Shown here one piece after another: positions 2,025 through 49,531 of a stretch of DNA of 64,000 nt; within the stretch, counting starts at the first letter, position 1, and each line of letters opens with the position of its first letter. The notes below the pieces were generated by a model. The model made no database searches. It saw only the letters and a list, made by a program, of their open reading frames with translations, and was not told where the DNA came from. A program made the position numbers and the translations under genes. This DNA is from Gammaproteobacteria bacterium (GTDB lineage Bacteria; Pseudomonadota; Gammaproteobacteria; Ga0077554; Ga007554), in NCBI GenBank assembly GCA_023266055.1, contig JAHFRW010000009.1, positions 2,709 through 66,708 of the forward strand, given 5' to 3'.

Positions 2025-3329
2025 TCATAAGCGACCACTGCGTTTTATGTCCAAATACCGGTTCACCATGGCTACCGGCAATCTGTCTGGCTCCACATCC
2101 AGACTAAAGACACCAGCATGTCTTACCCGTTCAAATGCCTTTTCGCGGGAATCCAGATAATAATGTGTTGCCGCCAGCGTCAGAGCATCGCTAAAGCTAG
2201 CTACGGGCTTGTTCAGCGTACTGCCAATAATCATTTCCCGCAGACTGGCTAAAAGCACTAGATGACGCTGCTTGAGCAGGTTCAATGCGGCCATTAACTC
2301 ATCACTGTCTTCATCACGCAAATTAGTCACCAAAACAACCAGGGAACGTTTTCTAAGTTTTTTCATTAAAGCGGTGACAGCATATACATAATCCGGCGTT
2401 TTTAACATGGGCTGCATGTCATATAAACGATTCATGAATTGATTTAATGTGGCACTTCCCTTTCCAGGTGGCAGATAACGCTCTTCACCCGCAAAACTCA
2501 TCATACCCACAGCATCTCCCTGACGCAGCGCCACATGGGCAAGCAGTAGCATGGCGTTAAGGGCATGGTCAAAATGTGAAAGCGTGCCATCCTGCGCCAG
2601 CATACGGCGCCCACCATCAAATAGAAATATAATTTGCTGATCTCGCTCATCCTGATATTCCCGAGAGATCAACTTATTCATTCGCGAGGTGGCTTTCCAG
2701 TCTACCTGACGCAGGGTGTCACCCTCACGATACTCACGCAACTGGTGAAATTCCAGCCCCAGACCACGTCGCCTGCGTTTACGTATTCCCATCTGGCTCA
2801 AGTGATGATCTGTTGCCAGCAGGGCATATTTTGAAACTGCGGCAAAATCGGGGTAGACACGCACTATCTGCGACTCTCCCAGCATCATGTTACGCTTCCA
2901 CAATCCCAGCGGGGATGACACAAGGACTTGTGTCATCCCAAACGTCTGATTACCACGTTGCATAAATCGTATCTGGTAATTTATTTCACCCCACGCGTCC
3001 GGCGCTATCACCATCTCCTGGGGTTGATGACGGCTTTCTGCCTGTACGGGATGATGATCATGGAGCGACAACACAACAGGTTTTTTATGGGCATTAACCA
3101 CGCGTATTTTGATGGTGCGCCACACATTGACGGGGTGAGAGCCTCGTAATTGACGCTGCACATAGGGAGCCTGCATGCGGTACAGAGAATAACCATCGAC
3201 AAATGCCATGACCGCAATCACCGCCCCTGTTACCTGCCATACCACGGAAAAGTCATCGAAAAAAGAGGCGGCTATCGCCATGACAAACCATAACCACAAC
3301 CACACAAAAAGATTTTTTGCAGCCTTCAT
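2025..3329 (-). CDS. DUF58 domain protein (vWA-like partner of MoxR) with N-terminal transmembrane segment
   Basis: 434 aa; N-terminal hydrophobic segment; sits immediately downstream of and overlaps the MoxR ATPase gene, the canonical MoxR-DUF58 pairing. Confidence 0.7.
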   Translation of the reverse strand: MKAAKNLFVWLWLWFVMAIAASFFDDFSVVWQVTGAVIAVMAFVDGYSLYRMQAPYVQRQLRGSHPVNVWRTIKIRVVNAHKKPVVLSLHDHHPVQAESRHQPQEMVIAPDAWGEINYQIRFMQRGNQTFGMTQVLVSSPLGLWKRNMMLGESQIVRVYPDFAAVSKYALLATDHHLSQMGIRKRRRRGLGLEFHQLREYREGDTLRQVDWKATSRMNKLISREYQDERDQQIIFLFDGGRRMLAQDGTLSHFDHALNAMLLLAHVALRQGDAVGMMSFAGEERYLPPGKGSATLNQFMNRLYDMQPMLKTPDYVYAVTALMKKLRKRSLVVLVTNLRDEDSDELMAALNLLKQRHLVLLASLREMIIGSTLNKPVASFSDALTLAATHYYLDSREKAFERVRHAGVFSLDVEPDRLPVAMVNRYLDIKRSGRL

Positions 3330-5448: not shown

Positions 5449-6239
5449 CGCACCGCCTTTTCAGGTAATTTGACCCTTTGAAAGTGTTGATTGAATTCTT
5501 CACAGAGGGTTTTCACTACGCTGGACTCAGGAAGACGATGCGCATATACGGTAAATTGCCAAGCATGCGTCAACATACCAAAATATTTCACAAGTTCTGT
5601 CTGGTGAATGAGGCTAACACGCCGCAAACATTCACCTTCAGTGGCGCTGGCTGTAATGGCGACACCATGACGCACTATCAACATGGCTAATGCACCACGA
5701 TATAACAAACCCATCGCCTCAACAGGTTTGCCATGTGACCACAACGACATCGCTGCGGCTGGAATATCGTCAGGTAGGGATTCCTGCCGAACGTCCAGCC
5801 CAAACAAAGCTTCAGGCACTGTGAGTTTCGAAAATGATGGGCGCCTCGCAAACAGCCCCAGCCAGCGATCCCTGTAAACAATCACCACCAACACCATCAC
5901 AAAGACAAGCACCCACAACATGAATTCAAACAATGACGCAAGGTATTGTACGAACTCCATCAGTGAATGCCTCCACTCGTTCTTGCCGCCATCCGCTTTG
6001 CTGGCTTCTCCGATATAACGCAAATTTTTTTCATCTTTCTGCGTCTCGAACTCGGGTCTGGCGAGAATTTCGGTAATGGTTTTTTTTATTTCCGCAGAAA
6101 ATTCCGGTGGAATACGGGACGATGCATGCTCTAACGAAGTCGGCGCATCCTCTGCCAGCACCGGCGGGGCGATAAAAAAACAACATGCCACCATCACACA
6201 TGATATACGGCACAACAGGACATGGCATAAATTATTCAT
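5445..6239 (-). CDS. DUF4129-like protein with signal/TM segments
   Basis: 264 aa; N-terminal signal-like segment plus an internal TM helix; operon position upstream of the DUF4350-like and MoxR genes. Confidence 0.45.
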   Translation of the reverse strand: MNNLCHVLLCRISCVMVACCFFIAPPVLAEDAPTSLEHASSRIPPEFSAEIKKTITEILARPEFETQKDEKNLRYIGEASKADGGKNEWRHSLMEFVQYLASLFEFMLWVLVFVMVLVVIVYRDRWLGLFARRPSFSKLTVPEALFGLDVRQESLPDDIPAAAMSLWSHGKPVEAMGLLYRGALAMLIVRHGVAITASATEGECLRRVSLIHQTELVKYFGMLTHAWQFTVYAHRLPESSVVKTLCEEFNQHFQRVKLPEKAVR

Positions 6240-10879: not shown

Positions 10880-11472
10880 ATGAAACCCTACTGCTATGGA
10901 TCAATCAGGGATGGGCACATCCCTGGCTCGACCTGTTTTTTGAGTGGATTTCGCAACGCGGCAGCTTCAGCTTTCCACTGCTGGGATTGTTACTGGTCTT
11001 TTATGGCTGGCGTTTCAAACAGGATGGCGCAAAACTGTGGCTGATGATGATACTAATCATCGGCATAGGCGACGGGCTGGGTAATATCATCAAACACAGC
11101 ACCGAACAATTACGCCCCTGCAATGCCCAACCCGAGCTGGTTCGCCAAATCGGCGCGCCGCCCAACACCCCGTGTGGCAGCGCCCCGAATGGCATGCCGT
11201 CCAATCACGCACTCAATTTTTTTGCGGTTGCCACCTTCCTGAGCATCATCCTGCGCTCACGGGCGTGGACAGCCAGTTTATTCATATTAGCGCTGCTGGT
11301 GAGCATCTCACGCATCTATTTAGGCAAGCATTATCCCCTGCAAGTGCTCGCAGGTGCTACGATTGGCACAATATTAGGCTTTCTTGCCGCCTGGATTGGG
11401 TTAAAATATATGGAATTTATACAACGTATCCAATCCCGGGCCATCTTACGGAACACAAAGCCTTACCCATGA
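10876..11472 (+). CDS. PAP2-family phosphatase (lipid phosphate phosphatase; LpxE/LpxF-like candidate)
   Basis: KHSTEQLRP...PSNHA motifs (PAP2 signature KxxxxxxRP / PSGH-like); 4-nt overlaps with both neighbouring genes. Confidence 0.8.
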   Translation: MNETLLLWINQGWAHPWLDLFFEWISQRGSFSFPLLGLLLVFYGWRFKQDGAKLWLMMILIIGIGDGLGNIIKHSTEQLRPCNAQPELVRQIGAPPNTPCGSAPNGMPSNHALNFFAVATFLSIILRSRAWTASLFILALLVSISRIYLGKHYPLQVLAGATIGTILGFLAAWIGLKYMEFIQRIQSRAILRNTKPYP

Positions 11473-12662
11473 CAACCATAGAACCCAAAATACGACCACC
11501 AGGGATGGTGGTCGCTCCCGGTGTCCTGCCTCCCGCGACACTTGTGCATCCGTGCACGGCGGAAGTGCCGGAAATGCACGATTCCATGGAAGGAGGAGGT
11601 AGAGCATTGCAAGGAACAAATGCTGAGGAGTCGCTTTCCGACCCGCCGCATACGCTACACCCCCCTTCCCCGCATCGGCTTTCGATTGTCATCCCGATGT
11701 ACAATGAAGAGTTGAGCGTTGCCCCAATGGTGGCACGTGTCCATGAAATACTTCAGGATTACACCTATCGATGGGAATTGATCCTGGTCAATGACGGTAG
11801 CGCCGATAATACCGAACACCAGATGAAACATGCTCAGCAGGAATATGGCGCGCATGTACGGGTTGTCAATTTACAACGTAACTTCGGCCAGACAGCCGCC
11901 ATGCAGGCAGGCATTGATACCGCCCGTGGCGACATCATTGCCATGCTCGACGGCGACCTGCAAAATGACCCGATCGACATCCCACGCATGGTAGAACGTC
12001 TGATCAACGAAGATCTTGATCTGGTATCAGGCTGGCGCAAAGACCGCAAGGATGGTTTGTGGCTGCGCAAAGTACCTTCCTGGCTCGCCAACCGGCTGAT
12101 TGGCCGCATCACCCAGGTACATTTGCACGACTACGGTTGTAGTCTCAAGGTATTCCGTGCCCATGTACTGAAAAGTGTGCGGCTCTACGGAGAAATGCAT
12201 CGTTTCATTCCGGCGTGGCTGGCATCCAGTACTTCACCGGCACGTATCAAGGAAGAAATTGTGACTCACCATGCACGCCAGTTCGGTGAATCCAAATACG
12301 GCATCTCGCGTGCATTCCGCGTCATTCTCGATTTGCTTTCAGTGTACTTTTTCATGCGCTACAAAAGCCGCCCCGGACACTTTTTTGGCAAAATCGGTTT
12401 CATCTTTGGCGCGCTGGGCACCGCCATCCTCGGCCACCTGTTTTTTGTAAAAGTGTTTCTGGGTGAAAACATCGGTGCGCGACCCTTGCTGATGATCGGC
12501 GTATTATTCATGGTCGTTGCAGTGCAGCTCTTTACCACCGGCGTACTCAGTGAAATGATGTCGCGCACTTACTTTGAATCAAGCAATACCCAATCCTATA
12601 TTGTACGTAACAAGGAAGCCGTGGCCAACGTCTCCGACGCGGACTGGAAACGGCCCGTGTGA
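11469..12662 (+). CDS. GT2 polyprenyl-phosphate glycosyltransferase (ArnC/GtrB/DPM1-like)
   Basis: LSIVIPMYNEE...VNDGSADNT...DGDLQNDP motifs with C-terminal TM helices, like ArnC. The true start is probably downstream (ATG 11574/11586, or TTG 11607 preceded by GGAGGAGG), because the first ~35 codons are the repeat element D. Confidence 0.85.
   Translation: MTTIEPKIRPPGMVVAPGVLPPATLVHPCTAEVPEMHDSMEGGGRALQGTNAEESLSDPPHTLHPPSPHRLSIVIPMYNEELSVAPMVARVHEILQDYTYRWELILVNDGSADNTEHQMKHAQQEYGAHVRVVNLQRNFGQTAAMQAGIDTARGDIIAMLDGDLQNDPIDIPRMVERLINEDLDLVSGWRKDRKDGLWLRKVPSWLANRLIGRITQVHLHDYGCSLKVFRAHVLKSVRLYGEMHRFIPAWLASSTSPARIKEEIVTHHARQFGESKYGISRAFRVILDLLSVYFFMRYKSRPGHFFGKIGFIFGALGTAILGHLFFVKVFLGENIGARPLLMIGVLFMVVAVQLFTTGVLSEMMSRTYFESSNTQSYIVRNKEAVANVSDADWKRPV
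11538..11632. repeat. Structured repeat element, copy D (partial), between the PAP2 gene and the ArnC-like gene; it supplies the GGAGGAGG Shine-Dalgarno
   Basis: cacttgtgcatccg ... aagtgccgg ... cacgattccatggaaggaggaggtagagca plus a stem-loop gcattg/caaatgc with a bulge in the same position as in A and C. Confidence 0.4.
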
Positions 12663-18889: not shown

Positions 18890-19162
18890 TTATTTTGTTA
18901 AAATTAACTTTCCATTACTGGTCAATCGCAAACGATATTCTTCACCTGCATGCTCGATAATCAGCTCACGCAAGCCCTTGAGCAAATCACTGCTGGAAAC
19001 ACGCGGTAACACAGCAGGCATGCGCTCAACTTTACGCACTGGCGGCTCTTCCACTACCGTGCATTCACCGCGCCTCCTCGGCAACTGCTGCTCCGCGGCT
19101 CTTGCGTATTCCGTGCCCGGCGGATGTGTTCTTGTACCTGGATTTTGATCGTCTTCAGTCAT
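18890..19162 (-). CDS. hemP: Hemin uptake protein HemP/HmuP-like small protein
   Basis: C-terminus ...EYRLRLTSNGKLILTK matches the HemP signature (Y.LR.T..GKLILTK). RBS AAGGATGG lies upstream of ATG 19162. A Fur-box promoter sits immediately upstream. Confidence 0.6.
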   Translation of the reverse strand: MTEDDQNPGTRTHPPGTEYARAAEQQLPRRRGECTVVEEPPVRKVERMPAVLPRVSSSDLLKGLRELIIEHAGEEYRLRLTSNGKLILTK

Positions 19163-19183
19163 ATATAGCAAACACCATCCTTA

Positions 19184-19220
19184 TTGAGAATGATTATCAT
19201 TTACATATTTAACTTTGTCA
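19184..19220 (-). promoter_or_regulatory. Sigma70 promoter (TTGACA-N17-GATAAT) with overlapping Fur box (AATGATtATCATT); repeat copy X
   Basis: Minus-strand reading cTTGACAaagttaaatatgtaaatGATAATcattctc. The 6-1-6 palindrome AATGAT-T-ATCATT is the Fur box core. Confidence 0.55.
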
Positions 19221-19558
19221 AGAAAATTTTTAAGCGGGGATATTTATATTGTTTTACGATCTCGCGGAACCCCGGAACTGCTCCTGGCAATTCTTGTGCA
19301 TCCCAGCATGTAGCGGTGTGCTCCTGCATTGCCCCACCTTCCGCAGTGGTCGTCTTTGCTCCAGTGATATGCAAGGGGCCTCGTTCCGGCGTGCCGGGAT
19401 CGTGCTGCGCCAAGCGCATACCCGTCGAAATATCCCACAAGAAATAATCAGAATCACCATGCTTCGACGGGCATCTGACAAATTACGGTGAGATGGCCCT
19501 TTGGTTACAATAATTAGGACTCCTTTACATTCTCGCCGGGATCTGATACCGTTTCAAT

Positions 19559-21281: not shown

Positions 21282-21402
21282 TATCTGCAAGAGCGTCCTG
21301 AAAGAAATCGATATGCCTAACGTCCTACGACAGGCACTAAAATGAAGGCGATCGCATGGCGTCAATGTTGACGCTCTCCTAAAGATTGCCACACTGCAGG
21401 GA

Positions 21403-21743
21403 ATGGTCATCATGCTTCATGTTTTTAAAATACCCTGCTCGGGTTGCATTCGGTGCTTGAATATCATCAAGTGACGACGCCTGAACCCATGGCAGTATTT
21501 ATGGATGAACAGCGGCTTCCTTTTACAATTGAAATTGACACATACACTGATAAAAACGATATGCCATTAACCATGCAGGAATATCGCCTGCAGGTAACAT
21601 CAACGACAGTGTTGATCGATCAACGCGGACGAATCCGGTTACAGAAATTCGGTACGATTGACGACTTAACGCTCGGCGTACGCGCGGGAATCCTCATAGG
21701 CAAATATCAATCGGTCAATCCAAATGAAATCTCTAATACATAA
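21403..21743 (+). pseudogene. Decayed thioredoxin-fold (TlpA/ResA-like thiol-disulfide oxidoreductase) gene remnant with frameshift and internal deletion
   Basis: Frame 1 reads MVIMLHVFKIPCSGCIRC...* (CxxC). After a shift, frame 2 continues with TlpA-like C-terminal sequence (...TTVLIDQRGRIRLQKFGTIDDLTLGVRAGI). The N-terminal signal and beta1-alpha1 region are absent. Confidence 0.3.
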
Positions 21744-22428
21744 AAATTATGTCCTGAACGCACTTCTGACCGGGCGAGTGGTTCCGTTCGGCTCTAACGG
21801 GTCTTTTAGTGCAATCCATAAACAGCCCGCGAACCACGCTATACAAGTCACCTTCACAGGCTTAGCCGGTGACGCACAAGCAGACCGCATACACCATGGT
21901 GGTATAGAAAAGGCGCTGCACCATTATCCACTTGACCACTATCCCTATTGGTATGCGTATTTGCACGCGCCACCGACATCACTCCCAGTCGGTGCATTTG
22001 GAGAAAACTTGTCTACGTCTGGCTTGACCGAGGACGACGTGTGCATTGGTGATGTGTTTAAACTTGGCTCGAGCGTTATCCAAGTCACACAACCTCGACA
22101 ACCTTGCTGGAAATTGAATGCCCGCTTCAATCATGTCCATATCGCACGCCACATGCAGCGGATGGGGATGACAGGTTGGTATTATCGCGTAGTCAAGGAA
22201 GGTGATGCAGCACCACAAGAAGAACTGATTTTTTCATCCCGACCAAATCCGCAATGGAACATCGCGCGCGTTGTATCTTTGCTTTATAAACGCGAAGAAG
22301 ACCGACGCAGCATTGAGGAATTAGCCAATGCAGCAGGGATCGGCAAATCGCTTTCGGCTTTGCTACATAAGCGACTCCGTACTGGTCAGGTGGAAAGTTG
22401 GGCCGACAGGCTGGGCGGTTACTTCTAG
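21724..22428 (+). CDS. MOSC domain protein (YiiM-like; N-hydroxylated base-analogue/hydroxylamine reductase family)
   Basis: 234 aa; MOSC beta-barrel with a conserved Cys (QPRQPCWKL) and a C-terminal 3-alpha helical domain. Confidence 0.85.
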   Translation: MKSLIHKNYVLNALLTGRVVPFGSNGSFSAIHKQPANHAIQVTFTGLAGDAQADRIHHGGIEKALHHYPLDHYPYWYAYLHAPPTSLPVGAFGENLSTSGLTEDDVCIGDVFKLGSSVIQVTQPRQPCWKLNARFNHVHIARHMQRMGMTGWYYRVVKEGDAAPQEELIFSSRPNPQWNIARVVSLLYKREEDRRSIEELANAAGIGKSLSALLHKRLRTGQVESWADRLGGYF

Positions 22429-22506: not shown

Positions 22507-23235
22507 CTACCCATGTGAAACGTCAACAGGCTCTAGTACATCTGCCAGCCATTCATTCCAGAAACAACTTGCTTGCGCGTGCAACCGGACTCCGAACTCC
22601 AGTGCATTCTTTCTGAGGTCATTGACCGAGACGTCTGGTGTCCCGGCGATCTCACACGCATGCCCGATGAGCCATCGCTCAAAGTCAGCAGGCAAAATCT
22701 CCGGATGGAATTGCAACCCGAGCGCCCGTTTCCCATATTTGAACGCCTGATTTCGATAACCGGATGTGGAGGCAAGCAGCGTAGCGCCCGTCGGTAAATC
22801 AAAGGTATCACCATGCCAATGCAACACTGATGTGGTACTACCGTCCAAATATCTAAAGGCTGGTAACTGGCGTATATTACTTAAGGACAGTGGGAACCAG
22901 CCGATTTCTTTGCCGGATCCAGGGTAGACCGCTGCCCCCAGTGCACGAGCCATCAGTTGTGCCCCCAGGCAAACCCCTAAAGTTGGTCTGTCCATTACCA
23001 GACGCGCCTGCAGAATTCGTACCTCTTCAATCAAAAATGGATAATTTTCCTCCTCATATGCGCCTAATGGTCCACCAAGAACAACCAATAGATCCGGCTC
23101 CAGAGGATCGAAGGCTTTGAGATTGGTAACGCCCGCCTCAAGATACTGGATCGTACCACCCAATTGCTCTATGGAAGCGGCTAGACTCCCAAGATCCTCA
23201 AACGCAACATGTCTTATCGCGACTACTTTCATCAC
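22507..23235 (-). CDS. Class I glutamine amidotransferase domain protein (stand-alone GATase1)
   Basis: 242 aa; catalytic Cys context LGVCLGAQL and an His/Glu region (FHPE) typical of triad GATases. Confidence 0.85.
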   Translation of the reverse strand: MMKVVAIRHVAFEDLGSLAASIEQLGGTIQYLEAGVTNLKAFDPLEPDLLVVLGGPLGAYEEENYPFLIEEVRILQARLVMDRPTLGVCLGAQLMARALGAAVYPGSGKEIGWFPLSLSNIRQLPAFRYLDGSTTSVLHWHGDTFDLPTGATLLASTSGYRNQAFKYGKRALGLQFHPEILPADFERWLIGHACEIAGTPDVSVNDLRKNALEFGVRLHAQASCFWNEWLADVLEPVDVSHG

Positions 23236-23251
23236 TGGGCTCCTGAAAAAT

Positions 23252-24253
23252 TCAGTTAATCATCAATCCACGATCAATAAAATTGCGGCGACACACTTCA
23301 TCGTCCAGCATCCCAACCTCACTGGCCAGCGCAGTAATACCGTTGAAATTCACCCGCTCAAGTCCCTGTTGATTGAGAAACCTGCAGTCCTTGATCATTT
23401 CCGCAACTCCATTGACGCGTAACTGAACAAGCATTCGATGCCAAACATCCAACTCAAGATCCGCAAACCAAAGAATGGGGCAAGGTAAAATTTTAGCGAA
23501 AAAACTCCTTTGTTCTTTGTTCATGGCGCCATAGAAACACTTGACCAATGACTTGAAAATCTGGCTATGTGCCAGTTCGTCGTGACGATGCGCTGCCACG
23601 GTCTCTCGATTGAGAGGTTGAATTGTTTTATCTTCAGAAAGTAAATGAAGATAATCACTGACAAATATCTCCGATACGACGCATGTTGCCAGCTGAACGA
23701 GCTGCCTTTTCCATATTTCGGCATGTTTAGCCTTTTCGGCTTCCATGAAATGGACAAGATTAAATGTTGGAATGTGGACGTATTGCAGGCCGCGTTGTTC
23801 ACGAGTCACGCGATTGGCGTTTTTCACGAGCAAAATATGGTAAGCCTCATCAACCAGCGTCTCACAGATAATCTGCTTTGTGGTTTCATTTTTCAGACCC
23901 GGAATCTTTTCATCAAGGATATCAATACACGCTGGGCTCACGATAGATGTTTCAATTGCAACCGTCTTTTCGTTGTATGCCAACCAGCCGCAAGAAAGAA
24001 TTTGCCTTTGCGTCTCATCTGCCAACCCCAAGTAAATGGGGTGATTCTTAAAGGGTAAGAGGTCTGCCCGAAAGTCGACACATTCCGCATCGTAGCGCAA
24101 CTCCAACTCGTCTTGCTTCACTTGTGCGCGGCTGTGCCAGCCACCCGCAATGCGATCTAAAAGATCCCTGACTTTCGAGAGATTCTCTGGGTGGCTGTTG
24201 TGTTGTTGATGGGCACCGGAAGAGTATGATGTTTTTGAAGTGGCTATATACAT
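23252..24253 (-). CDS. AurF-like ferritin-fold di-iron oxygenase (p-aminobenzoate N-oxygenase family candidate)
   Basis: Two ExxH motifs about 90 residues apart (ETLVDEAYH and HRHDELAH) plus additional conserved Glu/His, with the length and spacing of AurF/CmlI. Start set at ATG 24253, which has AAGGAG 7 nt upstream. Confidence 0.6.
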   Translation of the reverse strand: MYIATSKTSYSSGAHQQHNSHPENLSKVRDLLDRIAGGWHSRAQVKQDELELRYDAECVDFRADLLPFKNHPIYLGLADETQRQILSCGWLAYNEKTVAIETSIVSPACIDILDEKIPGLKNETTKQIICETLVDEAYHILLVKNANRVTREQRGLQYVHIPTFNLVHFMEAEKAKHAEIWKRQLVQLATCVVSEIFVSDYLHLLSEDKTIQPLNRETVAAHRHDELAHSQIFKSLVKCFYGAMNKEQRSFFAKILPCPILWFADLELDVWHRMLVQLRVNGVAEMIKDCRFLNQQGLERVNFNGITALASEVGMLDDEVCRRNFIDRGLMIN

Positions 24254-24319
24254 AAATCGCTCCTTGAACTTAATGGCTGGACAACCATGCACCCAGTTGA
24301 TTGCATAGTCTTGCGCGCC

Positions 24320-25592
24320 TTATTGATAACGACCAGATATGAATTCACCGTGAGGCATATCCAGGCCGTTTTGCATATTCCACACTTTTACAACTTCATC
24401 AGTGGCGGGGTCGATTTTGACGATGTGATTACTGACAAAACTGCTCACAATTACCGCCGTCTGATCCGGCGTGGAAAGGCTCGTGTGTGCGTTGACAAAA
24501 TCGCTGGGTAATTCGTAGCCCGGACGCATGCGTTTGATGAATACCGGATAATTGATATCTGAAATATCAAAAATCGAGATGTAACCCTCTTGGCCGAATG
24601 TAAGATCCATAGAATCTTCCTCAGCCACATACATCTTATCGTGAGCAATTGAAACAGAGGAAGCTGAACGGTAAATACCGGGGGCATCCACACTGTTAGC
24701 CGTGCCTACGATCATTTTTGACGTCGATGAGCCAGACGCTTGGCCCAATTACCGAACCATTCTCCGGCGTGAGCGAAGTTGGCCCGAGTTGCATCGTACC
24801 GACAACTGCATAACGGTTATCGATCCAGGTTGTGTAGTGTGCGAACGCCGCATAAACTTCCTTGGTGCCGAGAGAAATGGAACGTTTCCAATTGACAGCC
24901 CCCGTCGTTTTATTCGGCACAAAAACTTCTATGGTACCCTGATCAAGATGATAGCCCGCCACAATGCCAAAAGTGCCAGAAAGATTAAAATTGACCCCAT
25001 GTTTCTGGGCACTTTTGCTACCAAAACTTCTGGTACTGACAACGGTCGTTTGTCCGCTCGCACTGGTCTTGAAACTGCGGATGCGATTATCTGTCCAACC
25101 CGTGGTGAAGCTAAATTTCGTGCCTGGCAGCATCGTGGGTGCATGAATCTGTGAAGCCGTCGGAAACCACCAGGGTGGAATGGGCTGGGTGCCGCTTGTT
25201 TGTGTAACGACAGGAAAATTGGACTTTGTGCCCGGCTTGTCGACCTCCAATACATGGGTGAGCCTAATATCTGCCCGACCCGCATCGAAATTGATGCCAT
25301 CAACCTTTAGTGTAACTATAGAGGCGCCGTAGGTCTCGTTAGTGTTTGTGCTGACATAGATTGTTTTTTCATTGGGTGTCACCCAGGTATGTTGGCAAAC
25401 CGCCTTAGGCATCCCGGGCAAACCAACCAACGGGTGTTTGATTAAGATATCTTTTTCAAGATCAATCAAAAGCAATTCACAAGACATCATGTTTACTGCC
25501 GTGTAAAGATTGTTTGCAAACGCCGGTGGCACAACCAAACCCAGGGAGGCTGAAAATAAAACCGTAGTGAGATTTTGAGTTAATTTGGACAT
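24320..25592 (-). CDS. Secreted beta-propeller-like protein, interrupted by a frameshift at an A5 run (~24715-24725)
   Basis: Signal peptide MSKLTQNLTTVLFSASLGLVVPPAFA with AAGAGGAG upstream. ORFs 24696..25787 and 24320..24748 are consecutive parts of one protein in different frames, joined at gtcAAAAAtga. Confidence 0.55.
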
Positions 25593-26423
25593 GTATTTCT
25601 CCTCTTTAAAAACATTTGATTGTCGAGCGCACCTTTGCATGGTCGGAAACAACAGACGGCCCACAAAGACGTTAAAGTGTGTCGCCGTACTCGTGATATA
25701 TTTTGGGACATCCCAGTCCCCAAAATGACTGCGCTCGGCGACAAGTATGCCTTCGGCGCCCGGACAGGCCTGCGTTCGCCACGACACGCGACTACGCAGC
25801 GCGTCATGGCGACCACAATGCCGCTACGCCTGTCGTTGTTTCCCCATGTTGTCTACACGGGGGTTATCGCACACATTCCGACAACACAGGGAAACCTCGG
25901 CTATCCGGGGGGTGCCCGCCACCGCTCGCTTTCGCGTCGCTCTCCCTGGCGGGCGCCGGAGTCCCCACCGAAACCGCTGAAAACATGATCATAACCGCAA
26001 TGCTTCGGCTCGTATGTTTGATAAATTACGGTGAAATTATTGAGGGACGGCTTCCTCTCCCCTGCTTAATTTATACCGGTGATCATGTGGCGGTGTATTG
26101 CACACTAGCAGCTATTTGTTACAATTAGCAGTACTAAATATGTGTTCCCATAAAAAAATAAAAGTAACGATCCAGCCTGTTGACTCAACTTCATCCACCT
26201 CCCTTTGTAGGGTACTCGACAACTTAAGCGATGATGCGTTACAACTCGGTTGCAAATGGAAAAGAATTAATTGGTGGCGGCATGACAATCAGTACAGGCA
26301 CCCACCACTGCCCATCCATCACCGCTACCGCCGTTGACATCTACCATAACATCGCCCACATAGAACTTGCGACACTACTGCAACCACCCGGTGCTTGATC
26401 ATGAAATATATCCGTCTCATGAA

Positions 26424-26460
26424 TAAGAATAATTACATTTACATATTTAATTTTGTCAAG
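26424..26460 (-). promoter_or_regulatory. Second copy (Y) of the ~38-bp promoter module (TTGACA-N17/18-GTAATT, degenerate Fur box) firing leftward into a long leader upstream of the beta-propeller/AurF-like/GATase operon
   Basis: atttacatatttaa(t/c)tttgtcaag shared with copy X at 19198-19220. Confidence 0.45.
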
Positions 26461-26505
26461 TGGATTGATAGCGTTAAATTCAAGAAGCATGCGCTTTTCG
26501 TTGCG

Positions 26506-27186
26506 TCACACGTCTGCCCACATCCGTAACAGGTTGTGATAACAGCCCGTGAGATCCACCGCCGCTTCCGTGTCACCCTGAGTTTCACGTACCCGCAGAA
26601 TTGCCATATCCAGATCAAACAGCAGACGCCGCCGCTCATCCTCGCGCACCATGCTTTCAATCCAGAAGAAAGAGGCGAGACGGGTGCCATGCGTGACGGG
26701 TTCGACCCGATGCACACTGGTACCCGGATACAAAATCAGATCTCCAGCGGGTAATTTGACCCGCTGCTCACCGAAGGTGTCTTCGATCACCAGCGCGCCG
26801 CCGTCATAGGACTCGGGGTCAGCCAGAAATAGCGTGGCCGAGAGATCGGTGCGCACGCGTGATCCACTGGTGGCGATGCGGCGGATTGCGTTGTCGACGT
26901 GATTGCCGAAACTCATGCCGCCCTCGTAGCGGTTAAAGAGCGGCGGAAAGATCTGCCTGGGCAACGCCGCTGTGAAAAACAGGGCACTACGTTCGAGCGC
27001 CGCCAGCACGATGCGGCCAGCCATACGCGTGGCTTCGCAGTCTTCGGGCAATTGCAGGTTGTGCTTGGCCTGGGCCGACTGGGTGCCAGCGGTGATGCCG
27101 CCATCGGCCCACGGCGCAGATACGAGCACGGTGCGTATCTGCGCAAGCTCATCGGTTGTCAGAATTTCTGGAACGTGGAGTAGCAT
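26506..27186 (-). CDS. piuC: PKHD-type Fe(II)/2-oxoglutarate-dependent hydroxylase PiuC
   Basis: 226 aa; HxD...H 2OG-oxygenase core (FGNHVDNA...H); classic partner of a Fiu/PiuA-type catecholate receptor, which lies immediately upstream. Confidence 0.85.
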
Positions 27187-27402: not shown

Positions 27403-29799
27403 TTAAAACTTCGCTCCAAAGGTAAGCTGCACGGCGCGCTTGGTTCCCGGTATGGAATGCCCCGCGTACACGCCTTCATAGTAGTCTTTGTCCAGGAGAT
27501 TCAGAACGTTCAGCTTTACCGAGTACTTGTCCCAACCATATTGAGCCATCGCATCCCATCGCCAGTAACTCGGCACGGCGTTGATATTGGTATTGTTGGC
27601 ATAGCGCCGCCCCGCGCCTTCTACACCGCCGCCAATCTTCCAGCCACCGCCCAGCTTATACGTATTCCACAGATTAGCCGTGTACTTGGGCGTATTAAGC
27701 GGCGTGTTGCCGCGTGTGTTGGCTTGCTGCGCGGCGGCAACATCAATCTCCGCTGTCATCAATGCTAGCGCGCCAAAAACGTCCCAGTCGGGAGTGATGC
27801 GCCCCACACTTTCGAACTCGATGCCATCCGTGTGGCGTTTTCCCGAAAGCAGATATTGGGTGCTGGCCAGATCTGTATTGCGCTCATTGGTTTTTTCAGA
27901 GCGGAAGATGGCGGTGCGCAACGACAGATTCCCGTCGATCAAATCCCATTTCGCGCCCACCTCAATGTTGCGATTTTTCTCTGGCGGCGTGTTGGCAGAA
28001 CGGTCATCAAGCTGATAAAGCTCCGCCGAGGGGTTGAACGAGGTGCCGTAAGAAACATAATACGTGGTCAGATCAGGCTGGTACATCACGCCAGCACGAT
28101 AGCTCCACACGTTATCGGTGCGCGACAGGTCACCGGCCGGGGCGGGACGGGCATAATCCGCCTTGAGTTGATCATGGCGCGCGCCCAGCACCAGTTTCCA
28201 CATAGTTGCCAGATCCATGACATCCTGCGCGTAAAGTCCAATGGTATGCGCCTTGTAGGTAACATCATCGGTGGGGGTTCTGTCCAGAAATCCGGAGGCG
28301 AGCGGTGGATTCGGATCGGGATTGCCGACGGTGGTGGGTGGATTGATGCCCGTGTTGACGTAGTTCCAGCGATGCGCTTTTTCCTGCATCAACTCCAGGC
28401 CGGCCAGCAATTGATGCTTGATTCCGCCCGTGTTCAGCTTCGTGGTGAAGTCGGTCTGGCTGGTGATGGTGTCTTCTTCACCGCCGCGCGCCTGGCGACC
28501 ACGACAAACAATCGTGCTCCCGGTGATAATTGTTGGGGCAGCGGTAACGCACCCTGTCCCTGTCAGCCGTGGCGCTACAACCCGCAAATCACGTTCGTAG
28601 TCAGCCACGCGCAGCACAGTGCGAACTGAGGTATCGGGATTAAACCGGTGGATGTAACTTGCCGTAGCAATACTAGTTTGGTTGCGCTCATAATCAGCAT
28701 TGGCCATGCCATAAAACCGTGTGACTGGCACGTCGAGAGGCCGACCCTGGAAATAAGGCACGCCGTAATCCGGAATATTGTCTTCTTTTAGATAGTAGTA
28801 AGACAGCGCAAATTCGTTGCGGGTACCTATCCCCCACCGCACTGAAGGTGCAATGCCCCAGCGCTCTTGATTCACCGCATCGCGAAAACTGTCGGTATCG
28901 GTCTTCATGAGATTGACGCGCACTGCGGCATCCTGGCCCACCATCTTATTCAAATCGGCAGTAAGGCGCTTATAGTCGAACGAACCCAGCGTGAGCGTCG
29001 CTTCGTTGCGATCAGCCAGAGAAGGTTGCTTGCTGACCTGATTGATAATGCCGCCCGTCGAACCGCGGCCAAACAGCATCGACGCGGAGCCGCGCAGAAC
29101 ATCAAGCTGCTGGAGGTTAAAAACTTCGCGGTTGTACTGGGCGACATCGCGCATGCCGTCTAGATAAAGATCACCTGCCGCCGAGTAACCGCGTATCGTG
29201 ATATTGTCGCCAATGCGTCCGCCCTCGCCAGCGTTGAAGGTAAGACCAGCGACATTGCGTAGCGCCTCTCTAAACGTGGTGGCGTTGCGATCCTTCATCA
29301 ACTGCTCGGTAACGACAGTGACCGATTGCGGAATATCGCGTGGTAATTGTTGCAGCTTGCCAACGCTGGTCGTGTCGCCCTGGTATCCCTTCGCTTCACT
29401 ATCGCGTTCCGCCTTGACTTTCACTTCGGGGAGGCTTTCCTCTTTCGACTGTGCGGCGGCTTGACCAGCATCGGGTTCAGGCTGTGCAAACGCCGGATTT
29501 GCGACCAGAATCAAGGCTAGGGTTCCGGCACTGACGGCCCCCAAAGGCAATAGTCTGCCAATTTTTAATGGATGGCGTTTGCTTGTCAGACAGTTCTTGC
29601 TGAATCCTTCGCTTTCGCTCTTCCCTGCGCTCACCGCACTTGTGCATCCGCCGTGCAGGGATGCACAAGTGCCGCCAGAGGCACGACTGCATGGATGCAG
29701 GAGGTAGAGCAACGCCGGGAGCGGTTGCCGAGGATGCCGAAAGCGGCCTGCCTGGCGAATGTTTTTTTCTGAAGGTGTCACGAGTCGCATGTGTTTCAT
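27403..29799 (-). CDS. TonB-dependent outer-membrane siderophore receptor (Fiu/PiuA-like). The called ORF includes ~80 upstream codons that are probably 5' leader; the signal peptide begins near 29565
   Basis: Plug and 22-strand barrel features; C-terminal ...TFGAKF. Signal peptide KIGRLLPLGAVSAGTLALILVANPAFA/QPE is about 80 aa inside the ORF, and the upstream part coincides with repeat element A. Confidence 0.9.
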   Translation of the reverse strand: MKHMRLVTPSEKNIRQAGRFRHPRQPLPALLYLLHPCSRASGGTCASLHGGCTSAVSAGKSESEGFSKNCLTSKRHPLKIGRLLPLGAVSAGTLALILVANPAFAQPEPDAGQAAAQSKEESLPEVKVKAERDSEAKGYQGDTTSVGKLQQLPRDIPQSVTVVTEQLMKDRNATTFREALRNVAGLTFNAGEGGRIGDNITIRGYSAAGDLYLDGMRDVAQYNREVFNLQQLDVLRGSASMLFGRGSTGGIINQVSKQPSLADRNEATLTLGSFDYKRLTADLNKMVGQDAAVRVNLMKTDTDSFRDAVNQERWGIAPSVRWGIGTRNEFALSYYYLKEDNIPDYGVPYFQGRPLDVPVTRFYGMANADYERNQTSIATASYIHRFNPDTSVRTVLRVADYERDLRVVAPRLTGTGCVTAAPTIITGSTIVCRGRQARGGEEDTITSQTDFTTKLNTGGIKHQLLAGLELMQEKAHRWNYVNTGINPPTTVGNPDPNPPLASGFLDRTPTDDVTYKAHTIGLYAQDVMDLATMWKLVLGARHDQLKADYARPAPAGDLSRTDNVWSYRAGVMYQPDLTTYYVSYGTSFNPSAELYQLDDRSANTPPEKNRNIEVGAKWDLIDGNLSLRTAIFRSEKTNERNTDLASTQYLLSGKRHTDGIEFESVGRITPDWDVFGALALMTAEIDVAAAQQANTRGNTPLNTPKYTANLWNTYKLGGGWKIGGGVEGAGRRYANNTNINAVPSYWRWDAMAQYGWDKYSVKLNVLNLLDKDYYEGVYAGHSIPGTKRAVQLTFGAKF
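29606..29762. repeat. Structured repeat element, copy A (5' leader region of the TonB-dependent receptor gene)
   Basis: Contains a perfect 14-bp hairpin gcacttgtgcatcc/ggatgcacaagtgc, the ggaggtagagca box, a bulged stem-loop and a gccGAAAgcggc hairpin; about 85% identical to copies B and C. Confidence 0.5.
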
Positions 29800-29923: not shown

Positions 29924-30469
29924 TCATCTCGACCGTAGGGACGACTGCATGGCCACTTCTTCCGGCATCCTGCCTCTTGCGGCACTTGTGCGTCCATGCA
30001 CATCGGATGCAGGAGGTAGAGCAACGCCGGGAGCGGTTGCCGAGAGATCTTTCTCCGGCTCACTCACAAACCCAATCTTTGAAAGACCAACCTTGGCTGC
30101 CTCCGCCATTACGTCGGCCAGCACCTGGTAGCGCGTATTCCTGTCAGCGCGCAGGTGCAGCTCCGGCTGTGGCGTTTTGCGGGCTTCGCTGGCAAAGCGT
30201 GCCATGACAGCGGCCTTGTCGATGGCCTCGCCATTCCAATAGAACGCGCCACCAGCGTCGATCGCAAGTTCGATCTTGTCTGGCTTGGTCAGGGTGGGCG
30301 ACGACGAGGCTTTGGGCAGGTCAATCTTGACCGCATGCGTGAGTAACGGCGCAGTCACGATAAAGATCACCAGCAGCACCAACATCACGTCGATCAGCGG
30401 TACCATGTTGATTTCGGCTATCGGCTGCGGGCCACCGGATTTGCTGAACCCACCGAAAGCCATGGTCAA
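29924..30469 (-). CDS. exbD: Biopolymer transport protein ExbD, with an unusually long C-terminus that reads into repeat copy B
   Basis: MAFGGFSKSGG..INMVPLIDVMLVLLVIFIV is canonical ExbD/TolR; the 181-aa length compares with the usual ~140. Confidence 0.85.
   Translation of the reverse strand: MTMAFGGFSKSGGPQPIAEINMVPLIDVMLVLLVIFIVTAPLLTHAVKIDLPKASSSPTLTKPDKIELAIDAGGAFYWNGEAIDKAAVMARFASEARKTPQPELHLRADRNTRYQVLADVMAEAAKVGLSKIGFVSEPEKDLSATAPGVALPPASDVHGRTSAARGRMPEEVAMQSSLRSR
29941..30044. repeat. Structured repeat element, copy B (rearranged or partial), overlapping the exbD 3' end
   Basis: Shares acgactgcatgg ... gcacttgtgcgtcc ... ggatgcaggaggtagagcaacgccgggagcggttgccgag with copy A. Confidence 0.45.
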
Positions 30470-31263: not shown

Positions 31264-32159
31264 TGTGTTAGTTCAAAGGTGATGGGAATGAGGGCATACA
31301 CATGCAACGCAACGCCATTCTCGGTATGGGGTTTGAAAAGCGCGGCGAGCGCGGAATTGATAGCCGCCTGGTCCAGGCGCGCGAATCCCGACGAAACCTG
31401 AACCAGCGCCTGCTCCGGCCTGCCCTGGGGATTTATCAACACGCGCACGATAACTCTGCCCGCTTCATTCATACGGCGCGAGAGCGATGGATACTCGGGT
31501 TGAGGTGACCGCACATATTCCACACCCGAAACCAGTTTGGGTTGCGGCGCAGGCGGTGGTGTTTTCGGTTCAGGGAGTACAGGTGGCGTTATCATTGCTG
31601 CAGCAGCGACAACGGGTTCTTCCACAACAGGAGCCACCGCAAGCGGAGTCGCCTCGACAGTCGCTGGCGCCTCGTCAGGTGTCAGAGTTGCGGTAAGGAG
31701 CAGCGGCGCTTTCTGTTCAGGCAGTGCAACTACTTTGGGTAACATTACGGATGGCGCGGGCGACGCAACGGCGGGGCGGATGAGATCCACGAAAAGCGGC
31801 GCGGCTTCCTGCACCACCTGACGAACTGCTTCGACTTGTAACAGCGCATAAACAGCGGCCACATGCAACGCCACGACAGTGAGTACGCTCGCGAGTCGCA
31901 GACGCAGGCCGGGCAGGCCGTTAGCGTCACTGGTGCCGTGCGGGGGATTATGCTGCCGGAAATTAAAAGGCTCCAAGCGATTCCTACGGAACCCCTTCTC
32001 GCTTTCTCTCTTCCCTGCGACGTGCATGGAAGCATTAGTGTCGCGGGAGGCACGAACCCAAGGATGGGCGAAGGTAGAACAATGCAGGAGCCATTGTCGA
32101 AGATGCCGAAAGCGGCCTGCCCGGTGAATATCTGCCGTTGTCATCGCTAACCGTTCCAA
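31260..32159 (-). CDS. tonB: Energy transducer TonB (start probably internal; the first ~60 codons coincide with repeat copy C)
   Basis: TM helix, Pro-rich spacer (PVLPEPKTPPPAPQP) and C-terminal TonB domain (...GRVIVRVLINPQGRPEQALVQVSSG...). Confidence 0.8.
   Translation of the reverse strand: MERLAMTTADIHRAGRFRHLRQWLLHCSTFAHPWVRASRDTNASMHVAGKRESEKGFRRNRLEPFNFRQHNPPHGTSDANGLPGLRLRLASVLTVVALHVAAVYALLQVEAVRQVVQEAAPLFVDLIRPAVASPAPSVMLPKVVALPEQKAPLLLTATLTPDEAPATVEATPLAVAPVVEEPVVAAAAMITPPVLPEPKTPPPAPQPKLVSGVEYVRSPQPEYPSLSRRMNEAGRVIVRVLINPQGRPEQALVQVSSGFARLDQAAINSALAALFKPHTENGVALHVYALIPITFELTQ
31994..32128. repeat. Structured repeat element, copy C (5' leader region of tonB)
   Basis: ccttctcgctttctctcttccctgcg ... 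gaaggtagaacaatgcaggagccattgtcgaagatgccgaaagcggcctgcccggtgaat; the stem-loop carries a compensatory change relative to copy A. Confidence 0.5.
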
Positions 32160-32295
32160 AAATCATGACTCTCGCACCGAAAGATGGATTCAGGCCGAGG
32201 GTCAAAATATGATTGGCTGGCTAAGAGGCAGACACATCTGGCTGGCTATAGAAGGCGCGACCTCCAAACGGCCCGCGCCAAAATAGTTCTAAATA

Positions 32296-32316
32296 AGAAT
32301 CATTATCAATGATAGC
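32296..32316 (-). promoter_or_regulatory. Fur-box-like AT-rich hexamer array upstream of the tonB leader
   Basis: aagAATCATTATCAATGATag seen directly. Confidence 0.35.
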
Positions 32317-32453: not shown

Positions 32454-33218
32454 TCAGAAGCGCCTTAACTCATCCTCCGTCAACGGACGACTCTGCCCCT
32501 TGGGTAACGTCCCCAGCATCACGGAGCCGATTGCCACCCGGATCAGGCGTAGCACATCAGCATCCAGCACGGCAAGCATGCGGCGAATCTGGCGGTTGAT
32601 TCCTTGCTGCAACACTATTTCCAGCCAGCAATTCTTTTGACCACTGCGCAGCACCTGCACCTGGGCGGCACGCGCAAAAACCCCATCATCCGCCAATATC
32701 ACGCCGTGCTGTAACCTCGCTACATCGTCGTCATTCAATAGCCGGTTAACCTGCACATGATAGGTTTTAGGCAGATGGCGGGCGGGATCAAGAATACGTT
32801 GCGCCCATGCGGTATCATTGGTAAAAAAAATCAGACCTTCACTGGCCTTGTCCAGACGACCCACCGGCGCCAGCCAGGCATGCCGGTCATCTTCACCCAG
32901 ACACGTGTACACCGTTTCACGGCCCTGTTCATCACGGGCGGTCGTCACCAGACCACGCGGCTTGTTGACAGCAACATAACATTTCGGCACCTCGCTGAGC
33001 GTGGCGTTGTCCAGTGCCACACGATCCCGCACCATGTTAATGCGGGCTTCAGGATTGCGCAGCACCTGCCCATTCACACTCACCCGCCCCGCTTCAATCA
33101 AGGTGGCGGCGACCGTGCGCGAGGCAATGCCCATTTTAGACAAGACACGGGCAAGGCTCACCCCCGCCTGCCCGGTGTGCGTGGAACTCGCCTGCCTTCC
33201 GTCCATATTCTTTTTCAT
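32454..33218 (-). CDS. Pseudouridine synthase, RsuA/RluB/RluE family (S4 domain + catalytic domain)
   Basis: S4-like N-terminus (RLDKVLSKMGIASR) and catalytic Asp context AVNKPRGLVTT...GRLDKASEGLIFFTND. Confidence 0.8.
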   Translation of the reverse strand: MKKNMDGRQASSTHTGQAGVSLARVLSKMGIASRTVAATLIEAGRVSVNGQVLRNPEARINMVRDRVALDNATLSEVPKCYVAVNKPRGLVTTARDEQGRETVYTCLGEDDRHAWLAPVGRLDKASEGLIFFTNDTAWAQRILDPARHLPKTYHVQVNRLLNDDDVARLQHGVILADDGVFARAAQVQVLRSGQKNCWLEIVLQQGINRQIRRMLAVLDADVLRLIRVAIGSVMLGTLPKGQSRPLTEDELRRF

Positions 33219-45200: not shown

Positions 45201-45312
45201 AATAAAAAAGCCCGGCATCCAAAAGGGGGAAGGATGCCGGGTTATAAGATACCCGGCTTGGGGAAACCGGGTATTAGGGTTTCTGCCCCCGGGAGGGAGA
45301 AGGGGCAGAACA
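45201..45312 (-). ncRNA. Candidate small RNA or structured terminator element, copy 1: three hairpins with C-rich loops ending in an intrinsic terminator
   Basis: Minus strand: ctgcccc[UCUCCCUCCC]ggggcag; tacccgg[UUUCCCCAA]gccgggta; gcccggcatcc[UUCCCCCUUUU]ggatgccgggc followed by UUUUUUAUUUU. Confidence 0.4.
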
Positions 45313-45426
45313 GCGCGAAAACATCGCAGCATACACTTAAGACGCTACGCTTCCCGAAAAGTTCACCGAATATTTCAACGCTTTTTCTGCCAGGGCCAAC
45401 CCGCTTCAATCAGTCCACGATAGGCA

Positions 45427-45540
45427 TAAAAAAACCCCGACATCCGAAAAGGGGGAAGGAGGTCGGGGAAAGAGTACCCGGCTTGGGGAAACCGGGTACA
45501 TAGGGGTTTCCGTCCCGGGAGGGAGTGGGACGGACAAGTG
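45427..45540 (-). ncRNA. Candidate small RNA or structured terminator element, copy 2 (tandem paralog with compensatory stem changes)
   Basis: Same three-hairpin architecture. Hairpin 1 and hairpin 3 stems differ from copy 1 at paired positions (ccgtccc/gggacgg versus ctgcccc/ggggcag). Hairpin 2 is identical. Confidence 0.4.
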
Positions 45541-45804
45541 TGAAAACCACACTCTCCCTACTTAGTGGGGATGACACAGATAAAGTTCAAGGGCTTGGCA
45601 GTAAAACCTGCGTCCTGCTCCAGCCCGAAAAGAGCACCATGCCTGATCAACCATGGTAAAATAAGGTGAAACTTCCACCAAACGGGCACCGTGACCTCGT
45701 GAATACCCCGGCGGGTGTCGCCACTCCTGCAAAACCCTGCCAGACAATGTCAGGGCAAATGTGCCTGAATTATATCCAGAAGCTCAACACGCCTGCAGCC
45801 ATGG

Positions 45805-48781: not shown

Positions 48782-49531
48782 ATGAAAACGAAATATCGGC
48801 TTACACTATTAATGTTATTGGTGCCCGCACTCTTTACCGGCACTGCCCTGGCCAGCGACAAAGAGGCCATTATCGCCACCGTCATGTCACTGACGCCACA
48901 AGACGTGGCTATCATTGAACAACACGCCCAATCCGGTGATGCAAAGGCACAAACAGTACTGGGAATGACCTATGCGCTGGGAAAAGCCACGTCCCAAAAC
49001 GATGCCGAAGCAGCCAAATGGTATCGCAAGGCAGCCGAAAAGGGGTTTACCGTGGCGCAGTACGAATTGGGTATTGCATACGATAACGGCAAGGGGTTAA
49101 AGAAAAACTACGTTGAAGCCGTGAAATGGTATCGCAAAGCCGCCGAGCAAGGCTTTATAGAAGCCCAGACCAATTTGGGTTACGCCTATGAAAAAGGCCA
49201 GGGCGTTAAACAGAATTACGCGGAATCCATCAAGTGGTACCAGAAAGCCGCTGAAAAAGGCTCACTTGATGCCCAGTTCAATCTGGGGCTCCTTTATATC
49301 AATGGCAAGGGAATGACGCCTGATATCGCCACGGCCTATATGTGGTTTAGCCTGGTAGCATCGGACGGTGACCCGCAAGCCATGAAAAATGTTGCGCAAC
49401 TCAAGCAACGCATGACACCTGGTCAGCTCGCACAGGCACGCGATAAAATCGCAGAATGGCAACAGAAAAATCCCAAGCCGGTGGCACCTCCACTGCAACC
49501 GGAAGAAGGTGGCCCAACCATTTTTCTGTAG
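48782..49531 (+). CDS. Sel1-repeat (TPR-like) periplasmic protein
   Basis: Signal peptide plus six tandem Sel1 repeats (AKWYRKAAEKGF.VAQYELG...). Confidence 0.85.
   Translation: MKTKYRLTLLMLLVPALFTGTALASDKEAIIATVMSLTPQDVAIIEQHAQSGDAKAQTVLGMTYALGKATSQNDAEAAKWYRKAAEKGFTVAQYELGIAYDNGKGLKKNYVEAVKWYRKAAEQGFIEAQTNLGYAYEKGQGVKQNYAESIKWYQKAAEKGSLDAQFNLGLLYINGKGMTPDIATAYMWFSLVASDGDPQAMKNVAQLKQRMTPGQLAQARDKIAEWQQKNPKPVAPPLQPEEGGPTIFL

Follow-up and report, generated by a model that had tools for sequence, protein, structure and literature searches.

A duplicated hemP promoter is probably a scar of foreign gene insertion in an uncultured gammaproteobacterium

A 64,000-nucleotide stretch of gammaproteobacterial DNA (the window) carries two copies of one promoter module, X and Y. 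We propose that this duplication is the scar of recombining about 7 kb of foreign genes into a hemP promoter, with X the live copy and Y a relic, and assign this reading a probability of about 0.6. It is supported by relatives in which piuC, the promoter and hemP follow each other without interruption, and by the structure of X and Y themselves, each a chimera of two hemP promoter types and the reciprocal of the other. A sequence-only reading of the window had offered a recombination footprint as one explanation of the duplication, and the comparison with relatives favors that part of it. The features of the region are the following.

18890 to 19162, minus strand: type-1 hemP, 90 amino acids from the ATG at 19162 (PF10636, E = 8.7e-19; protein alignment)
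19184 to 19221, minus strand: copy X, an intact promoter of hemP, as judged from its sequence and from the conserved module in relatives
19222 to 19445, minus strand: region U, the upstream flank of X, common to the type-2 hemP loci L001, L017 and partly L013/L014
19557 to 22428, plus strand: left half of the insert, with genes for MarR, a 239-aa secreted protein, a 78-aa thioredoxin-like protein, a disrupted AhpC-like protein (21313-21740) and MOSC/YiiM
22507 to 25606, minus strand: right half of the insert, with p428 (frameshift at 24714-24730), an AurF-like diiron oxygenase and a class-I glutamine amidotransferase (GATase)
25607 to 26200, minus strand: remnant of a MOSC 3' end and the old MOSC-p428 spacer
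26201 to 26385, no strand assigned: 185 nt of orphan DNA with no detectable homologue, which is not a decayed hemP body
26386 to 26423, minus strand: type-2 hemP stub, in which the 5'UTR with the ribosome-binding region (GACGGATATATTTC) leads to a start codon (ATG, 26402-26400) and roughly four codons (M-I-K-H)
26424 to 26460, minus strand: copy Y, the relic promoter, with -35 and spacer intact and -10 and Fur box damaged
26461 to 26505, minus strand: spacer a, from the piuC stop to the -35 of Y, whose orthologue in L008, L018 and L019 separates piuC from hemP
26506 to 27186, minus strand: piuC-like Fe(II)/2-oxoglutarate oxygenase gene, after which hemP sits in close relatives

Both copies are located on the minus strand in direct orientation, 7238 nt apart. 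X reads CTTGACAAAGTTAAATATGTAAATGATAATCATTCT (19221 to 19186) and Y reads CTTGACAAAATTAAATATGTAAATG-TAATTATTCT (26460 to 26426). Of 36 aligned positions 33 are identical, one gap of 1 nt being present, and a looser alignment gives 46 matches over 59 columns. Allowing up to three mismatches, the 24-nt core is found in the 64-kb window at these two sites only. It did not occur in 100 dinucleotide-preserving shuffles, and self-BLAST of the window returned the X/Y pair at E = 1.3e-5, so the repeat is real and not a chance match. The duplicated minus-strand module described in the sequence-only reading is thus confirmed, with no other copy in the window. The 17-nt spacer within the module is identical at 16 positions between X and Y. 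Among the orthologues L008, L010 and L017 this spacer varies at a few positions, which indicates that its similarity in X and Y reflects recent common descent and not constraint alone.

Copy X has the features of a near-consensus housekeeping promoter. Its -35 element is an exact TTGACA (19221-19216), followed by a 17-nt spacer and a -10 element GATAAT (19198-19193). It matches the sigma-70 consensus at 11 of 12 positions and is the top match of our promoter scan between 18.5 and 27.5 kb. The palindrome AATGAT-t-ATCATT occupies 19189-19201. Fur boxes were scored against the 19-bp consensus GATAATGATAATCATTATC; the 19-mer GTAAATGATAATCATTCTC (19186-19204) matches it at 16 of 19 positions, the highest score in the whole window. 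This 19-mer spans the -10 at 19193-19198, placing the operator over the core promoter. The gene downstream, previously called hemP-like, belongs to PF10636. These data support X as a sigma-70 promoter with an overlapping predicted Fur operator in front of hemP, as had been read from the letters, and the promoter is conserved across relatives. Two other Fur-box-like sites are found in the window, one of 14/19 at 32289-32307 upstream of tonB and one of 15/19 at 11043-11061, about 110 nt upstream of an ORF starting at 11172. Both are unlike the hemP module outside the consensus.

The predicted transcription start of X is near 19185, about 24 nt before the hemP ATG. An alternative hemP start, a TTG at 19171, has better Shine-Dalgarno spacing. 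An exact look-up of the hemP product gave no match, though the protein is present in the homology database. A cation-diffusion-facilitator gene (18630-17692) is next after hemP along the minus strand. In Stenotrophomonas maltophilia, a hemP-led operon is repressed by Fur and has a Fur box in its promoter (PMC9241770). Together with the consensus match and seven conserved copies of the promoter, this published control of a hemP operon suggests that X most likely works as a classical Fur/iron switch. When iron is sufficient, Fur-Fe2+ would occupy the operator over the -10 and block RNA polymerase. When iron is limited, X would be derepressed and hemP transcribed from about 19185.

Eight copies of the module were aligned: X, Y and those of L001, L008, L010, L013, L014 and L017. 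TTGACA-N17-GATAAT is present in seven of them, each directly before an intact hemP. X and the five relative copies that were scored match the Fur consensus at 16 to 17 of 19 positions. Y is the sole aligned copy with a lesion, and the sole one with no hemP after it. Its -35 is an exact TTGACA (26459-26454). A 1-nt deletion converts GATAAT to G-TAAT, and neither the Fur palindrome nor a canonical -10 is intact. The best Fur match in 26381-26480 is 11/19, a background level. A Fur box had been described in both copies; it is present in X and lost from Y. Y also fails the promoter scan. None of the hexamers spaced 16-18 nt from the -35 combines A2 with T6: TGTAAT (16 nt) is missing A2, and GTAATT (17 nt) and TAATTA (18 nt) are poor matches. 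Read from the sequence, it retains an extended -10-like element, TGTAATTAT (TGT-AATTAT), at 19-nt spacing. Y is probably a relic, likely a weak promoter or none, and free of Fur control. Residual activity is conceivable, as the -35 is perfect and this element is kept.

The DNA downstream of Y identifies what it once served. Y is followed by a hemP 5'UTR, a start codon and the first codons, so that it represents a gene stub and not a free promoter. No hemP body was found behind Y beyond these codons by tblastn with both hemP types, by an nhmmer profile or by shuffle-controlled local alignments. The orphan DNA comes next, and then an inverted 42-nt copy of the 3' end of the MOSC gene (26200-26159, matching 22388-22427). 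The motif TATTTAGTACTGCTAATTGTAA is located at 26140-26119 in the old MOSC-p428 spacer, and 20 of its 22 positions are found in the spacer between the MOSC and 428-aa genes of GCA_043779595.1 (L005, 8429-8450). This motif may be the native promoter/operator of the 428-aa protein, AurF and GATase genes, and possibly a target of the cluster's own MarR. About 830 nt separate Y from the first gene, p428, with no credible gene between. On the minus strand, no consensus promoter or terminator was predicted in 26420-25592, and no terminator between 26506 and 25592. A Pfam search of the small ORFs in this stretch and in region U gave no credible match, only one sub-threshold hit to a viral family (E = 0.015). 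Y had been said to point into the long leader of the AurF-like operon. Its orientation is as described; the leader is instead composed of the stub, orphan DNA, MOSC remnant and old spacer.

The closest relatives reveal the arrangement that preceded the duplication. In the window, the order upstream on the minus strand is tonB-exbB-exbD (32159-29924), a TonB-dependent receptor (29799-27403), piuC and Y. Protein-guided look-ups recovered the contigs L008/L009, L010/L011, L018 and L019, whose piuC is 92-96% identical in protein and 86-93% in DNA. Five relative contigs have piuC, promoter and hemP in uninterrupted order. In these contigs, hemP is located immediately downstream of piuC on the same strand, and a single intact module lies within the piuC-hemP spacer of 95-170 nt. 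Positions 1-3060 of L008 correspond to window 29494-26400 and positions 2997-3288 to window 19222-18890. The two matches overlap, and 64 nt of L008 match both X and Y. The window therefore has the L008 arrangement with about 7.2 kb placed between. The relatives are short metagenome contigs, and assemblies may break or misjoin at repeats. Independent Logan contigs from the same sample are in agreement with the window: L004, equivalent to window 29699-25928, confirms the junction of piuC, Y and the leader, and L007 confirms the insert to 19287, stopping 65 nt short of X. These comparisons show an ancestral order of tonB-exbBD, TonB-dependent receptor and piuC, followed by spacer a, the core, a type-1 5'UTR and type-1 hemP.

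The lineage contains two types of hemP that share one promoter core. Type 1 (M-x-E-D/H ... RVSSSDLLK) is found in the window, L008, L010 and L018/L019, and type 2 (M-x-K-H ... RILSxALLNG) in L001, L013/L014 and L017. The 5'UTR is specific to the type, D1 for type 1 and D2 for type 2. In relatives, type 1 is always preceded by spacer a and type 2 by region U, with the same core of about 40 bp. The window copies break this rule. Y consists of spacer a, the core, D2, the ATG and the type-2 codons M-I-K-H, and X consists of region U, the core, D1 and type-1 hemP. The flank identities are as follows.

40 nt upstream of the core, Y and L008: 36/40
40 nt upstream of the core, X and L001: 32/38
60 nt downstream of the core, X and L008: 42/59
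60 nt downstream of the core, Y and L001: 36/50

The downstream match of Y and L001 contains GACGGATATATTTCATG at 17/17. All four combinations of flanks thus exist, and the window holds two reciprocal recombinants in cis and in direct orientation. Such reciprocal chimeras of two promoter types point to a single crossover inside the conserved core. Region U lies in the 338-nt spacer between the insert and X and is not shared with the piuC-adjacent loci. An origin of U as a diverged piuC 3' end was rejected, the alignment score being 31 against a shuffle maximum of 32.

Type-2 hemP is found in several contexts. L001 belongs to the MAG ‘Gammaproteobacteria bacterium Ga0077554’ and, from exbD through the receptor to piuC, shares 92% DNA identity with the window. 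After piuC it carries genes for a 238-aa protein and alkaline phosphatase, then one module copy and hemP. A 3.1-kb block composed of the 238-aa secreted protein, alkaline phosphatase, U and type-2 hemP is 85% identical in L001 (3638-6764), L013 (3447-6566) and L014 (3096-6219). It follows piuC in L001 and PepSY_TM in L013 and L014, indicating that the block has moved between contexts. In L017 (1071-11304), type-2 hemP and the same module follow an rluA-like gene with 79% identity to window 32465-33157. This hemP is in turn followed by an IucA/IucC siderophore synthetase cluster together with the receptor.

The DNA between X and Y has a different ancestry. At the DNA level its genes share 78% identity with a cluster of nine co-directional genes in L005, where the order is MarR, 239 aa, thioredoxin-like, AhpC, MOSC, 428 aa, AurF and GATase. 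The same cluster is present in the Logan contig L006, and the genomic context of L005 and L006 differs from that of the window. The p428-AurF-GATase genes of the window (25592-22507) form a block that is inverted relative to L005. Apart from the one short motif, homology to L005 reaches no further upstream than 14 nt from the p428 ATG. In 21 kb of L005, we found neither the module nor a Fur box of at least 14/19. Two genes of the insert are damaged. The p428 frameshift adjoins an A5 run, and in the AhpC/TSA-like gene residues 1-47 and 68-168 are in different frames with about 20 residues missing; both genes are intact in L005. Either these are genuine pseudogenes, or the lesions stem from sequencing errors in homopolymers. 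Pfam analysis of the scanned ORFs (MarR, MOSC, GATase and AurF) revealed no recombinase, integrase or transposase inside the insert; the thioredoxin-like and AhpC-like ORFs, outside the Pfam scan, were identified through their L005 homology. Rfam at gathering threshold gave no match in the whole window. The 6.9-kb insert, used as query against a plasmid collection, gave weak gene-level matches only and no plasmid counterpart.

X and Y had been said to bracket an island, and this is correct in that the segment between them is absent from the closest relatives. It is missing at the locus in L008, L010, L018 and L019, where piuC and hemP are adjacent, and L001 has different content there. Its composition is only mildly distinct: the GC content is 0.489, compared with 0.520 ± 0.021, which is the 4th percentile of 7.2-kb windows and a weak contrast. 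No AurF homologue of 83% to 100% identity was found in the protein collection, consistent with the absence of the cluster from the 92%-identical MAG.

A crossover between two promoters could account for this arrangement. The partners would be the resident piuC-hemP1 locus and DNA in which a type-2 hemP promoter was linked to the MarR...AurF cluster. Their product would read a-core-D2, the insert, and U-core-D1-hemP1, which is the order seen in the window. In the simplest scenario, a circular molecule would have integrated by a Campbell-type event, and the inserted DNA would later have undergone deletion and inversion. Y, at the ancestral piuC-adjacent site but cut off from hemP, would then have decayed. 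This path takes several steps: no trace of the type-2 hemP body is left, and an additional inversion has to be assumed. Among the recovered contigs, none was found to be the donor, with a type-2 hemP promoter beside the MarR...AurF cluster. Inversion between inverted promoter copies is ruled out by the direct orientation of X and Y. Unequal sister-chromatid exchange alone cannot put both reciprocal junctions on one chromosome.

Other origins of the two copies were weighed against recombination into the hemP promoter. The sequence-only reading had also raised a mobile promoter cassette, a module of about 38 bp that moves alone and installs iron-regulated transcription before new genes. Near-identical segments do precede different genes in one genome here, and promoter reuse is described in the literature (PMC3575422). 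However, a search for further copies revealed no dispersed family. In an exact-pattern scan of 185,579 species representatives (one genome per species) with the 23-24-nt core, the core was found in one further genome only, the L001 MAG, at one copy in the assembly. In the JGI metagenome set, it occurred only in that MAG's own contig (L003) and at one unrelated site in L002. Neither scan returned the window's own contig, and the copy number for its own genome refers to the 64 kb. The L002 site (5738-5760, TTGACAAATTTAAATATGTAAATATAAT), upstream of an ArsR-type regulator in a low-GC contig, matches the 23-nt pattern exactly but was judged a chance hit, and nothing else in L002 matched the window (BLASTN, E ≤ 1e-5). 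Every copy in the relatives precedes hemP, and Y itself holds the hemP 5'UTR and coding bases, with an upstream flank orthologous to the piuC-hemP spacer. Terminal inverted repeats and target duplications are absent around the module, and the best 50-column window of X and Y has 41 matches, below the 46/50 used for putative mobile promoters (PMC3575422). A mobile cassette is therefore very unlikely. Convergence is more improbable still, and already contradicted. Unrelated iron-regulated promoters could resemble each other through shared -35, -10 and Fur consensus, which make up most of the module, and the DNA is AT-rich. However, the X/Y spacer is alike where orthologues vary, the shuffles gave no matches, Y resembles relatives on into the non-consensus 5'UTR and first codons, and the module is unlike the other Fur-like sites of the window.

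Y could also have been captured to drive p428, AurF and GATase, giving them new and possibly Fur-free regulation. It is directed toward the operon and combines a perfect -35 with TGTAATTAT, which looks like an extended -10. The stretch between Y and p428 is free of predicted consensus promoters and terminators, and the L005 homology stops just before p428, bar the one motif. Against this, Y alone of the eight copies has a lesion, which takes away the critical A from a normally spaced -10. The path to the first gene crosses the stub ORF, orphan DNA, MOSC remnant and native spacer motif, the first gene is frameshifted, and where the cluster occurs elsewhere it lacks a Fur box. These features argue that Y was not designed for the AurF operon, and we consider its capture unlikely. 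It is more likely, as far as the sequence allows, that p428-AurF-GATase is served by its own old spacer or by read-through from piuC. A quite unlikely proposal is that the core of about 40 bp is a recurrent recombination hotspot, in which the promoter acts as an attachment site for swapping hemP paralogues and adjacent gene cassettes among loci and genomes. If so, the 2x2 flank combinations and the differing cargo next to hemP would record repeated events and not a single accident, and incoming clusters such as MarR...AurF would land beside iron-uptake genes and gain or escape Fur control. Distinctly unlikely is an origin from old tandem paralogues, with type-2 hemP after piuC and type 1 beyond, followed by loss of type 2 and an independent insertion. 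The lineage does have two hemP types on one core, and every relative shows variation downstream of piuC. However, this leaves unexplained the flank of Y, which accompanies type 1 in L008, L018 and L019, and the flank U of X, which accompanies type 2 in L001, L017 and partly L013/L014; no contig has both types in tandem.

Recombination of the insert into the hemP promoter can be compared with known systems. The locus resembles the Fur-repressed hemP/hmuP operons, such as Yersinia hemPRSTUV and S. maltophilia hemP-hemA (PMC9241770, PMC6158557), in having a small PF10636 gene behind a sigma-70 promoter with a Fur-overlapped -10 and in its TonB/ExbBD/TonB-dependent receptor neighborhood. Unlike in those operons, hemP of the window follows a piuC-type oxygenase and does not precede a haem receptor. 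Its promoter is present twice, each time in recombinant form and once broken, and we infer its regulation here. Putative mobile promoters (Nijveen, Matus-Garcia and van Passel) are sequences conserved at 46 or more of 50 bp upstream of non-homologous genes (PMC3575422). The window is similar in that highly similar upstream sequences stand before different genes in one genome. It differs in that Y keeps the start of its original gene at the ancestral site, the match is 41/50, and the module has no sign of independent mobility. The insert resembles islands left by Campbell-type or site-specific integration in being a foreign block absent from the closest relatives, flanked by direct repeats, here of 36-60 bp, that represent crossover halves. 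Unlike such islands, the locus has no integrase, tRNA or att site, and its insert later underwent inversion and partial decay. Paralogous genes have the repeat in common as their promoter/operator, which makes general homologous recombination the likely agent.

No new regulatory mechanism is described here; the locus is a new instance of known phenomena. It provides a probable example of the short conserved promoter/operator of paralogues serving as the crossover site for insertion of a gene cluster, and it records variability in the segment that follows piuC in an uncultured gammaproteobacterial lineage. For annotation, it would be a mistake to treat Y as a Fur-regulated promoter driving the AurF-like operon.

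Several other repeats are found in the window. Dispersed, hairpin-rich REP- or MITE-like repeats are located at 11509-11629, 29589-29757, 29935-30041, 32018-32129 and 59330-59385, with a weak copy at 19278-19308. An example of this family is the 14-bp perfect inverted repeat GCACTTGTGCATCC...GGATGCACAAGTGC, and related pieces occur in L003. Two of the copies, at 29589-29757 and 29935-30041, have no counterpart in the 92%-identical MAG locus, indicating recent insertions around exbD and the receptor start. Three further repeats are tandem or near-tandem. A 241-nt repeat (59414-59654 and 59762-60002, 76-84% identity) is located inside a 1020-aa ORF (59393-62455) that likely encodes repeated lipoyl domains. 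A repeat with a 108-nt period is present at 48996-49287, and a 122-nt repeat pair at 45204-45547.
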